Positions 1 through 1,930 of a stretch of DNA of 1,930 bases are shown piece by piece. The DNA is from Escherichia coli (GTDB lineage Bacteria > Pseudomonadota > Gammaproteobacteria > Enterobacterales > Enterobacteriaceae), in the NCBI RefSeq assembly GCF_003334785.1, contig NZ_QOWV01000058.1; one strand, given 5' to 3'. The stretch's first letter is position 1; each line of letters starts with the position of its first letter. The translations under genes and the position numbers were made by a program. The notes beneath the pieces are model-generated. The model saw nothing but the letters and a program-made list of their open reading frames with translations, was not told the origin of the DNA and ran no database searches.

Positions 1-123
1 AACCCCCCGTTCAGCCCGACCGCTGCGCCTTATCCGGTAACTATCGTCTTGAGTCCAACCCGGTAAGACACGACTTATCGCCACTGGCAGCAGCCATTGG
101 TAACTGATTTAGAGGAGTTTGTC

Positions 124-153
124 TTGAAGTTATGCACCTGTTAAGGCTAAACT
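124..153 (+). promoter_or_regulatory. RNA I promoter
   Basis: -35 TTGAAG at 124-129, 18-nt spacer, -10 TAAACT at 148-153, start near 160. Same arrangement as the remembered pMB1/p15A RNA I promoter. Confidence 0.7.
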
Positions 154-159
154 GAAAGA

Positions 160-267
160 ACAGATTTTGGTGACTGCGCTCCTCCAAGCCAGTTACCTTG
201 GTTCAAAGAGTTGGTAGCTCAGCGAACCTTGAGAAAACCACCGTTGGTAGCGGTGGTTTTTCTTTAT
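160..267 (+). ncRNA. RNAI: Antisense copy-number control RNA I (about 108 nt) of a ColE1-family replicon
   Basis: Starts ACAGATTTTGGTGACTGCGCT as in ColE1-family RNA I. It ends in a stem-loop ACCACCG-ttggtag-CGGTGGT followed by a T-run, and the length matches the canonical 108 nt. Confidence 0.85.
237..266 (+). terminator. RNA I intrinsic terminator (third stem-loop plus U-tract)
   Basis: Perfect 7-bp stem ACCACCG (237-243) / CGGTGGT (251-257) with a 7-nt loop, immediately followed by TTTTTCTTT. Confidence 0.75.
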
Positions 268-274
268 TTATGAG

Positions 275-303
275 ATGATGAATCAATCGGTCTATCAAGT
301 CAA
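275..303 (-). promoter_or_regulatory. RNA II (replication primer) promoter
   Basis: On the - strand: -35 TTGACT (+ coords 298-303), 17-nt spacer, -10 CATCAT (+ coords 275-280), predicted start near 268. It sits where the RNA II promoter lies in ColE1-type replicons. Confidence 0.6.
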
Positions 304-323
304 CGAACAGCTATTCCGTTGAC
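299..323. repeat. 7-bp perfect inverted repeat GTCAACG-(11 nt)-CGTTGAC spanning the -35 elements of two divergent promoters
   Basis: GTCAACG at 299-305 and its reverse complement CGTTGAC at 317-323, read directly from the sequence. Confidence 0.8.
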
Positions 324-347
324 AAAAAAACAAGATCTGTACATATT
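319..347 (+). promoter_or_regulatory. Candidate sigma70 promoter for the toxin-antitoxin operon
   Basis: -35 TTGACA at 319-324, 17-nt spacer, -10 CATATT at 342-347, flanked by A7/A6 tracts. A weak SD-like ACGGA lies at 359-363, 8 nt before the ATG at 372. An in-frame stop at 279-281 with no intervening start codon fixes 372 as the start. Confidence 0.5.
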
Positions 348-371
348 CAAAAAAAACAACGGATTGACCCA

Positions 372-1412
372 ATGGCACAGAACCCGTTTAAAGCACTAAA
401 TATCAATATTGACAAGATTGAGTCTGCTCTGACGCAGAATGGCGTCACAAACTATTCCTCTAATGTAAAAAACGAAAGAGAAACTCACATATCTGGCACA
501 TATAAAGGAATAGACTTCTTAATAAAACTAATGCCATCAGGCGGAAATACCACTATCGGAAGAGCGTCTGGGCAAAATAACACTTACTTTGATGAAATCG
601 CCTTGATTATAAAAGAAAACTGTTTGTATTCAGACACAAAGAACTTTGAATACACCATTCCAAAATTCAGTGATGATGACAGGGCAAATCTATTTGAATT
701 TCTTTCTGAAGAGGGGATAACAATAACAGAAGATAATAATAACGATCCTAATTGTAAACACCAATATATTATGACCACCAGCAATGGTGACAGGGTCAGG
801 GCAAAAATTTACAAGCGCGGCTCTATTCAATTCCAAGGAAAATACCTTCAAATCGCGAGTTTGATTAACGATTTCATGTGCTCAATACTAAACATGAAAG
901 AGATTGTCGAACAAAAAAATAAAGAATTTAATGTTGACATAAAAAAAGAAACTATTGAGTCCGAGTTGCATAGCAAACTACCAAAAAGCATCGATAAAAT
1001 CCATGAAGATATCAAAAAACAGCTATCATGCTCGCTAATAATGAAAAAAATAGATGTCGAAATGGAAGATTACTCAACATACTGCTTCTCTGCATTAAGA
1101 GCCATAGAAGGCTTTATATATCAAATACTTAATGATGTTTGCAATCCATCATCATCAAAGAACCTTGGCGAATACTTCACTGAAAACAAACCCAAATATA
1201 TAATCAGAGAAATACACCAAGAAACTATAAATGGTGAAATAGCGGAAGTTTTGTGTGAATGCTACACTTACTGGCATGAGAACAGGCATGGTTTGTTTCA
1301 TATGAAACCAGGAATAGCTGACACGAAGACAATTAACAAATTAGAATCAATCGCAATCATCGATACCGTTTGCCAATTAATAGATGGTGGCGTAGCTAGG
1401 TTGAAATTATGA
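372..1412 (+). CDS. rnlA: RnlA/LsoA-family endoribonuclease toxin (RNase LS-like, HEPN-type), 346 aa
   Basis: Long ORF starting at the first ATG after an in-frame stop. C-terminal motif ENRHGLFHM (R305-x4-H310) fits the HEPN R-[NHD]-x3-H signature. LRAIEG (aa 242-247), GEYF (aa 266-269) and the R-H-x-LFHM block match my recollection of RnlA/LsoA. A downstream 126-aa partner overlaps by ATGA, as in rnlAB/lsoAB. Family call is from memory, not a database search. Confidence 0.7.
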   Translation: MAQNPFKALNINIDKIESALTQNGVTNYSSNVKNERETHISGTYKGIDFLIKLMPSGGNTTIGRASGQNNTYFDEIALIIKENCLYSDTKNFEYTIPKFSDDDRANLFEFLSEEGITITEDNNNDPNCKHQYIMTTSNGDRVRAKIYKRGSIQFQGKYLQIASLINDFMCSILNMKEIVEQKNKEFNVDIKKETIESELHSKLPKSIDKIHEDIKKQLSCSLIMKKIDVEMEDYSTYCFSALRAIEGFIYQILNDVCNPSSSKNLGEYFTENKPKYIIREIHQETINGEIAEVLCECYTYWHENRHGLFHMKPGIADTKTINKLESIAIIDTVCQLIDGGVARLKL

Positions 1413-1789
1413 AAAAAGATAAAAAATATCAAATAGAAGCAATAAAAAATAAAGATAAAACTTTATTTATTGTCTATGCTACTGATATTTATAGCCCGAG
1501 CGAATTTTTCTCAAAAATCGAATCCGACTTGAAGAAAAAGAAAAGCAAGGGTGATGTTTTTTTTGATTTAATAATTCCTAACGGTGGAAAAAAAGATCGT
1601 TACGTCTATACGTCATTTAATGGCGAGAAGTTTTCAAGTTACACATTAAACAAAGTTACGAAAACTGATGAATATAATGATTTATCTGAGCTCTCGGCTT
1701 CGTTCTTTAAAAAAAACTTTGATAAGATCAACGTAAACCTTCTATCCAAAGCCACATCATTTGCTTTGAAAAAAGGCATTCCAATATAA
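1409..1789 (+). CDS. rnlB: RnlB/LsoB-family antitoxin, 126 aa, lysine-rich
   Basis: ATG at 1409 overlaps the upstream TGA (ATGA), with an AGG SD-like element at 1398-1400. Size and position match the RnlB/LsoB antitoxin encoded downstream of its toxin. The segment GDVFFDLIIPNGG resembles a remembered RnlB segment. No MNT (GSxxxG/DxD) or HTH motif is evident. Confidence 0.6.
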   Translation: MKKDKKYQIEAIKNKDKTLFIVYATDIYSPSEFFSKIESDLKKKKSKGDVFFDLIIPNGGKKDRYVYTSFNGEKFSSYTLNKVTKTDEYNDLSELSASFFKKNFDKINVNLLSKATSFALKKGIPI

Positions 1790-1805
1790 TATCAAGCCAG
1801 AAGAC

Positions 1806-1834
1806 ATTTACCATAACGTCTCATTACGCGCACC
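1806..1834 (-). other. cer-like XerC/XerD site-specific recombination core (plasmid multimer resolution site)
   Basis: The - strand reads GGTGCGCGTAA-TGAGACG-TTATGGTAAAT. The right arm is identical to the ColE1 cer XerD arm TTATGGTAAAT, and the left arm differs from the dif XerC arm GGTGCGCATAA at one position. The central region is 7 bp. Accessory (ArgR/PepA) sequences would lie at higher coordinates and run off the window. Confidence 0.6.
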
Positions 1835-1930
1835 GCCAAAACGCGCTGAACGCGATTCTGACGCAGACACCGCAAAAAGAGATGTTTTCCCCGGGGTAAA
1901 CCGGAAAAATGCGTCAGGATCGCTTTCAGC

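Follow-up and report, generated by a model that had tools for sequence, protein, structure and literature searches.

The DNA we analysed is a stretch of 1,930 nucleotides from Escherichia coli, referred to throughout as the window, and it contains a two-gene operon, lsoA-lsoB, flanked by a ColE1-type replicon on the left and by a cer-like site for Xer recombination on the right. The window is identical (100% DNA identity) to pOSAK1 (AB011548/NC_002127, 3306 bp) of E. coli O157:H7 Sakai. It is also 100% identical to dozens of further copies, carried by O157, by other E. coli and by Salmonella. The AT-rich block within it is the lsoA-lsoB locus of pOSAK1, which is already characterised and hence ordinary. 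The window holds the following features.

162 to 265, plus strand: RNA I, the antisense regulator of a ColE1-type replicon (Rfam RF00106 RNAI, scoring 83.7 bits where the gathering threshold is 47, E = 1.9e-15); part of the backbone, adjoining the island on its left
275 to 303, minus strand: promoter-like site of RNA II, the primer (TTGACT-17-CATCAT, from a consensus scan; putative function)
304 to 1805, plus strand: AT-rich cargo segment of 33.6% GC, comprising promoter, lsoA, lsoB and a 16-nt tail
319 to 347, plus strand: lsoAB promoter-like site (TTGACA-17-CATATT, 10 of 12 consensus matches; putative function)
372 to 1412, plus strand: lsoA, mRNA endoribonuclease toxin of 346 aa, RnlA family (RefSeq annotation lsoA)
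1409 to 1789, plus strand: lsoB, antitoxin of 126 aa (Pfam RnlB_antitoxin PF15933, E = 4.7e-18; RefSeq annotation lsoB)
1806 to 1834, minus strand: cer-like Xer core, with XerC arm GGTGCGCGTAA, 7-nt central region TGAGACG and XerD arm TTATGGTAAAT
1835 to 1930, minus strand: start of the conserved accessory region beside the Xer core, which runs past the window towards mobA

The two genes are the only sizeable open reading frames in the window, and the start of lsoB overlaps the stop of lsoA (ATGA, 1409 to 1412). The alignment of LsoA with the PDB entry 5hy3_A, "mRNA endoribonuclease LsoA", is full-length and takes in residues 1-346 of the two chains (E = 3e-234), and LsoA contains the Pfam domains RnlA_toxin_N, RnlA_toxin, RnlA-toxin_DBD and HEPN_RnaseLS (PF19417, PF15935, PF19034 and PF18869; E = 3e-48 to 3e-11). 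The HEPN motif R-x4-6-H is found as RHGLFH at residues 305-310 (R305-x4-H310), and R305, H306 and H310 are invariant across nine members of the LsoA clade. A search of NCBIfam returned no family for LsoA or LsoB, and PADLOC run on the two proteins gave one weak partial match, to PDC-M07A (E = 0.0012); the identification therefore rests on the PDB match, the Pfam domains and the RefSeq annotation. The lsoAB promoter-like site lies back to back with that of RNA II, its -35 box 15 nt past the end of the replicon, and it has been kept along with the genes in the related cassettes L006, L007, L009, L010 and L013, which are described below. A preliminary description of this DNA, made from the letters alone, had proposed a self-contained two-gene module with its own promoter between a ColE1-type replicon and a cer-like site, and this proposal is supported.

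The operon is the same system as the LsoA-LsoB described from pOSAK1 (Otsuka & Yonesaki 2012; LsoA-Dmd structure PDB 5HY3), and we see no difference between the two. PMC5308261, with reference to Otsuka & Yonesaki 2012 and to Wan et al. 2016, presents it as a type II toxin-antitoxin that acts against phage T4; neutralisation of the toxicity by the antitoxin and the anti-T4 (dmd mutant) phenotype are both reported there, after Otsuka & Yonesaki 2012, for exactly this locus. Following that account, LsoA would be a HEPN-type mRNA endoribonuclease that is kept inactive by the labile LsoB; the shut-off of host genes by phage T4 would lead to the loss of LsoB, and the free LsoA would degrade T4 mRNAs, and the T4 protein Dmd would inhibit LsoA and spare the phage mRNAs (PMC5308261). 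RnlA-RnlB (RNase LS) from the cryptic prophage CP4-57 of E. coli K-12 is alike in its NTD-NRD-DBD/HEPN architecture, in its RnlB-family antitoxin, in the order of toxin and then antitoxin and in the overlap of the genes, and PMC5308261 reports that the toxins of both systems are inhibited by Dmd. However, the similarity between the two systems is only distant (E = 2e-14), and RnlA-RnlB is chromosomal and prophage-borne, whereas lsoAB is located on a ColE1 plasmid.

In ColE1 plasmids the RNA I gene overlaps RNA II at its 5' end, and the RNA II promoter lies just beyond the RNA I 3' end. In the window the RNA I terminator forms a hairpin at 233-261 and the RNA II promoter-like site follows; the equivalent region is present, although variable in sequence, in 14 relatives. 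The plasmid is of the ColE1 type by its RNA I gene, by this promoter-like site past the RNA I 3' end (a consensus match), and by rop, which is annotated on the full pOSAK1. We infer that the RNA II promoter-like site marks the functional left edge of the replicon, and that the replicon ends at about 303.

The cer-like site of the preliminary description proved to be real: the Xer core pattern is matched exactly on the minus strand (0 matches expected from 200 shuffles), 16 nt past the lsoB stop and with its XerD arm facing the cargo. In a cer-like dimer-resolution site the XerC arm is followed by accessory sequence of about 180 bp, in which an ArgR box is located. Here the distance from the Xer core to the stop of the convergent mobA/nikA gene, which lies beyond the core, is 189 bp. 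The part of this accessory region that falls inside the window contains a 21-nt inverted repeat (1845-1865 and 1910-1930) and is 97-99% identical in the backbone relatives pMB2666_4 (L004) and pAUSMDU00014361_03 (L005). The sole ARG-box-like match lies outside the window, at positions 1933-1950 of pOSAK1; it is a palindrome that includes TGCATAGCTATGCA and has five mismatches to the consensus. The Xer layout recurs in 14 related plasmids, and in two of these the position is occupied by the canonical ColE1 cer core. No second Xer core is found in the window with three mismatches allowed, no pair of Xer half-sites is found near the left end of the cargo, and none of the 14 cargo slots compared has an Xer site inside it. 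A Xer-flanked module of the pdif type, considered as a candidate, thus does not fit, as an Xer site was found on one side of the cargo only.

The claim that the cassette forms a sharp AT-rich island is confirmed. The GC content is 47.4% at 1-310, 33.4% at 311-1800 and 50.8% at 1801-1930 (inside versus flanks, chi-square 32, p = 1.4e-8), the plasmid backbone outside 311-1800 has 51.6% GC, and a sliding GC profile reveals a low-GC block in place of a uniform composition. An unconstrained maximum-likelihood scan for two change points sets the breaks at 256 and 1826 with a log-likelihood gain of 22.2; in 100 shuffles the gain averaged 6.3 and did not exceed 12.8. The likelihood changes rather little over about 250-320 (left break) and 1790-1830 (right break), and the transitions proposed earlier, at 310-370 and about 1790, are compatible with these ranges; the left step comes slightly before 310 because it takes in the AT-rich region of the RNA II promoter (266-303). 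The 60-nt lines that had been sampled were read correctly, with 60% GC at 1-60, 21.7% at 901-960 and 50% at 1861-1920, although the 22% and 60% lines are the lowest and the highest in the window, so that the real contrast is about 15 points and not about 38. The choice of such extreme lines is what one could cite for regarding the island as chance heterogeneity in a short window, or as an artefact of three sampled lines; however, the gain exceeds that of every shuffle, the chi-square test points the same way, and the pattern is repeated in the full plasmid and in 13 relatives, so that we consider the probability of this explanation negligible.

The AT-richness might also be a by-product of proteins rich in Lys, Asn and Ile, with neither origin nor a bias at the nucleotide level being involved. 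LsoB does consist of 19% Lys, LsoA of 11.8% Ile, 9% Lys and 8.4% Asn, and GC is low at the first and second codon positions. The codon analysis proposed in the preliminary description bears out the island in so far as GC is low at all three positions (38/30/36% in lsoA and 31/27/30% in lsoB; the backbone gene mobA, for comparison, has 58/44/52%). If protein content were the cause, synonymous sites would be expected to match the backbone (about 52% GC), yet the third position is equally low, at 30-36%, and the non-coding leader of 61 nt at 311-371 has 32.8% GC. Moreover, sister plasmids encode unrelated proteins in this slot and are likewise AT-rich there, and K-12 RnlAB, from the same fold family, has 44.9% GC compared with 33% in lsoAB. 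This explanation therefore appears very unlikely.

The low third positions, as low as the first and second, are expected from long residence in an AT-rich genome, and with the sharp composition step and the sharp right boundary they would agree with a recent, discrete insertion of the two-gene module from a low-GC organism into an empty site between replicon and cer. The cassette is found in 68 of 5426 complete E. coli genomes, plasmid-borne every time, and its absence from the chromosomes of all 5426 also speaks for an acquisition of this kind. Nevertheless, the comparison with relatives, described in the following paragraphs, makes such an insertion improbable.

We searched a plasmid collection with the cer-mobA flank, which about 740 plasmids in PLSDB match, and the counts given here refer to the 54 records without lsoB among the matches listed. 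The backbone homology starts at window positions 1804-1806, the outer end of the XerD arm, in 35 of these, at 1829, inside the XerC arm, in 13 that have a different central region, and at 1798 in three; a start to the left of 1798 was seen in none of the 54 listed records. Conversely, RnlAB-family cassettes that are 85% identical and reside on other backbones, in E. coli (L006), K. aerogenes (L007) and Salmonella (L009), keep their homology to the window up to 1796-1881 and then lose it. In the first two the cassette, the XerD arm and the central region are common, and divergence begins from the XerC arm. The contig of a Morganella Rep3-type plasmid (L010) has the window sequence 297-1817 in common at 82% identity and diverges past the XerD arm; this copy still has part of RNA I, but a deletion has removed the RNA I terminator and the RNA II promoter. 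The right limit of the cargo segment (1805) is based on the homology breaks at 1804-1806 in the backbone relatives, and the left limit (304) on the Morganella copy, which starts at 297, and on the 85%-identical copies. An alignment of six sequences displays a crossing pattern in which homology switches at the Xer core, and by this comparison the Xer core is the apparent pivot between cargo and backbone.

The closest relative without the cassette, pMB2666_4, matches pOSAK1 at 99% identity over the arc that leads from 1805 through the rest of the plasmid to about window position 70. The identity falls to about 74% over RNA I/RNA II (about 70-265), and the two plasmids are unrelated at about 265-1804, where pMB2666_4 carries a different overlapping two-gene module; pAUSMDU00014361_03 has a similar break pattern. 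As pMB2666_4 also differs across RNA I/RNA II, the data fit a segment swap and not a clean insertion, with a replaced segment that probably reached from about 70 to 1805 and included the RNA I/RNA II control region. In all plasmids of the LsoAB clade the cassette is collinear with its own ori segment, at 84-85% identity in L006, L007 and L009, and the same collinearity is present at 71% identity in three metagenomic ColE1 plasmids (L013-L015). The check for flanking direct repeats found nothing beyond 10-13-mers at chance level, which holds for inverted repeats as well, and the window contains no terminal inverted repeats, target-site duplication, or transposase, integrase or recombinase gene. 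An empty site was not found either, all 14 ColE1-type plasmids examined holding AT-rich cargo. The record NZ_CP070068.1 (1440 bp), considered as an "empty" derivative, proved uninformative, as the linear record is partial and stops at window position 345. The word "inserted" in the preliminary description thus does not hold: flanking repeats and a second Xer site are absent, the replaced segment extends well into the replicon, and the cassette is collinear with ori.

A two-crossover exchange is most likely, judging from the comparative breakpoints in about 20 sequences. Plasmids would have exchanged their cargo through one recombination event at the Xer core and a second crossover in the conserved ori, and the route would be formation of a cointegrate followed by its resolution, as opposed to a transposon-like insertion. 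Because the XerD arm hardly varies, the position of the crossover inside it cannot be pinpointed, and because only one Xer site bounds the cargo the exchange needs a second, hypothetical event. Selection for an intact cer, rather than recombination at this place, could in part account for breakpoints beside a functional cer. A role of recombination at Xer/cer and oriT in ColE1 evolution has been published (PMC8683028; PMC6764390). Plasmid evolution at Xer sites, as in the small ColE1-like plasmids with qnrB19 and the pdif modules of Acinetobacter, is alike in that the Xer core lies exactly at the junction of cargo and backbone and homology switches there; however, the Acinetobacter modules have two flanking Xer sites and the pOSAK1 cargo has one. 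In the model of Tran et al. 2012 for the qnrB19 plasmids, the second crossover is reportedly at oriT, whereas in pOSAK1 it apparently occurred in ori.

The search for a donor likewise gave no support to an import from a low-GC organism. In a word-indexed search of 5.8 billion proteins, only nine clusters have at least 45% identity to LsoA, and these are located on small contigs that resemble plasmids, on the contig of the Morganella plasmid, or on a metagenome contig that resembles a prophage; an exhaustive search of representatives gave no further cluster above 37% identity. Two narrow peptide patterns derived from the clade alignment had no match in 100,044 species-representative genomes, and lsoAB had no match in phage records. 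The cassettes of the LsoAB clade (66-86% protein identity) occur on plasmids only and have 32-34% GC through about 30% nucleotide divergence, which indicates that their composition hardly changed while they diverged substantially within enterobacterial plasmids. At 85% and at 71% identity the cassette is still collinear with ori and its GC is still 34%, so that the association is old. The more distant cassettes of the RnlAB family have 41-54% GC; six other contexts were sampled, and in each the cassette exceeds its surroundings in AT content by 2-17 points, although no low-GC genome is among them; the nearest relatives outside the clade (at most 37% identity) lie in contexts of 44-61% GC. The cassette is clearly foreign relative to the backbone. 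Nevertheless, the low-GC source named in the preliminary description is not supported as stated, as a donor was not found and the clade keeps its composition within enterobacterial plasmids. A general AT-bias of mobile defence cargo fits the data at least as well as a low-GC source, and we regard the AT-richness as a long-standing property of the mobile gene pool and not as a datable import from an identifiable low-GC organism.

The comparison of the slot in 14 ColE1-type plasmids, all oriented alike, suggests that pOSAK1 follows a rule of its family. The order in all 14 is RNA I, a cargo of 0.9-2.3 kb, the XerD arm and the backbone; the cargos are mutually unrelated and have 33.6-40.9% GC, and the backbones have 48.8-52.3%. 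The preliminary description would have been contradicted by relatives that are equally AT-rich at this locus. Taken literally, such relatives exist, but the AT-rich sequence found there is other, unrelated cargo, and the island is therefore an instance of the family-wide rule and is not refuted. The family combines a backbone whose GC, at about 50%, resembles that of the host (ori, rop, mobA and cer) with a single cargo slot that is AT-rich whatever it encodes. With good confidence we conclude that the island is the accessory ("variable") region of pOSAK1, a plasmid of the ColE1 family, and consists of an lsoA-lsoB operon with its own promoter in this single AT-rich slot, that its cargo was most likely swapped at the Xer core and ori, and that its AT-richness is an old property of the mobile pool.

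As such the feature is already known and accords with the published mosaic of ColE1 plasmids. For Enterobacteriaceae, Ares-Arroyo et al. 2018 (PMC5864857) give 51.7-59.4% GC for the conserved and 32.4-52.5% for the variable regions; the part of their study considered here agrees with ours in a backbone of host-like GC with ori and mob and a variable cargo of lower and more scattered GC, and it reports toxin-antitoxin, abortive-infection and restriction-modification cargo in the variable regions. In contrast to our data, that part does not set the right border at the XerD arm of cer. What is mildly new is that the border of the cargo coincides with the XerD arm to the nucleotide, and that anti-phage systems recur in the slot.

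We tentatively suggest, and would not yet call it probable, that in the subfamily with nikA-like mobA, rop and cer the cargo slot, bounded by the RNA II promoter and by the XerD arm, is a swappable cartridge for AT-rich anti-phage systems, with the Xer core as pivot and with a crossover in ori able to co-transfer the RNA I/RNA II incompatibility determinant. If this were the case, then tiny multicopy plasmids would be a platform for the exchange of defence systems, and the cargo and the incompatibility type would move together. The border at the XerD arm and the anti-phage cargo of the sister plasmids hint that very small plasmids trade defence cassettes by means of the host Xer machinery. Among the alternative cargos of the slot, PD-T4-5 is matched in pLAO53 (E = 6e-134) and in pRHB30-C19_6 (E = 7e-30), and further cargos match known or candidate anti-phage systems, namely PDC-M12 A and B and an AbiL-like ATPase with a RloB-domain partner.

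The contrast in GC content between the lsoAB cassette and its surroundings recurs in its wider family. RnlAB-family cassettes were 2-17 GC points more AT-rich than their surroundings in all six of the other contexts compared (records L011, L016, L027, L029, L030, and L032); these include the rnlAB operon of K-12, located in CP4-57, with 44.9% GC versus 48.4% in its surroundings. Another of the six contexts is chromosomal-looking, with 57% GC, and there too the cassette is the more AT-rich part.

In four sister plasmids (L017, which is pLAO53, L018, L019, and L021) the slot equivalent to that of lsoAB holds recognised or candidate anti-phage systems according to PADLOC. Among these slots are matches to PD-T4-5 (E = 6e-134 and 7e-30), and another sister plasmid carries PDC-M12 A and B as its cargo. 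An AbiL-like AAA ATPase together with a RloB-domain protein forms further cargo in this slot, which extends from RNA I to the Xer core. PADLOC returned no match for the cargo of the cassette-free backbone relatives L004 and L005, nor for that of L020, L022, and L023.

Derivatives of pOSAK1 with 7.5-8.3 kb from E. coli and Salmonella (L002 and L003) carry Tn3/blaTEM inserted in the backbone, and the window recurs at 100% identity within a 95.7-kb Salmonella plasmid (NZ_CP063706.1, 61041-62970). In the Morganella morganii plasmid contig JAKKEY010000033.1 (L010), a ColE1-derived fragment at 3714-5306 resides on a Rep3-type plasmid; partial RNA I is followed by an LsoAB-clade cassette with its own promoter and then by the XerD-arm-like ATTAACCATAA. 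The ColE1 origin is dead in this plasmid, because the RNA I terminator and the RNA II promoter are deleted. Positions 8-374 of plasmid p6 from Klebsiella sp. PO552 (L008) match window 1-366. This match takes in the lsoAB promoter region (window 314-366, 96%), and lsoAB is absent downstream of it. Two ColE1-type replicons are present on p6, as are two rop genes; the plasmid is therefore probably a cointegrate, with the junction just upstream of the lsoA start codon.

Short ORFs in the RNA II/ori region (window ~1-107) were annotated automatically as 'replication initiation protein' or 'hypothetical protein', among others at:
L001 (compared record), 2653-2766
L004, 626-787
L006 (E. coli cassette carrier on another backbone), 1041-1184
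Since ColE1-type replication does not need a plasmid-encoded initiator, these calls are probably spurious.

Promoter-like sites were found within the cassette itself:
window 1318-1360, (+) strand, inside the 3' end of lsoA
One is CTGACA-18-TAGAAT, with 10 of 12 matches to the promoter consensus, and the other is TTAACA-16-AATCAT. These candidate sites could give rise to a separate lsoB transcript. They are only a lead, as the number of sites in the scan did not exceed the chance expectation.

The following elements lie in the cer-like accessory region:
window 1845-1865 and 1910-1930, 21-nt inverted repeat, 90% complementary
window 1909-1886, (-) strand, terminator-like hairpin
window 1884-1901, palindrome GTTTTCCCCGGGGTAAAC
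full pOSAK1 1933-1950, beyond the window and ~100 nt from the XerC arm, palindrome containing TGCATAGCTATGCA
The TGCATAGCTATGCA palindrome is the region's sole ARG-box-like sequence, with five mismatches to the consensus. L006 (NZ_CP081780.1) has two Xer-like cores in direct order, ~500 bp apart (record positions ~2850 and ~3350), which bracket a hypothetical ORF of 112 aa. The first core retains the XerD arm and central region with a degenerate XerC arm, and the second is complete. It looks as though a second small module has been stacked at the Xer site.
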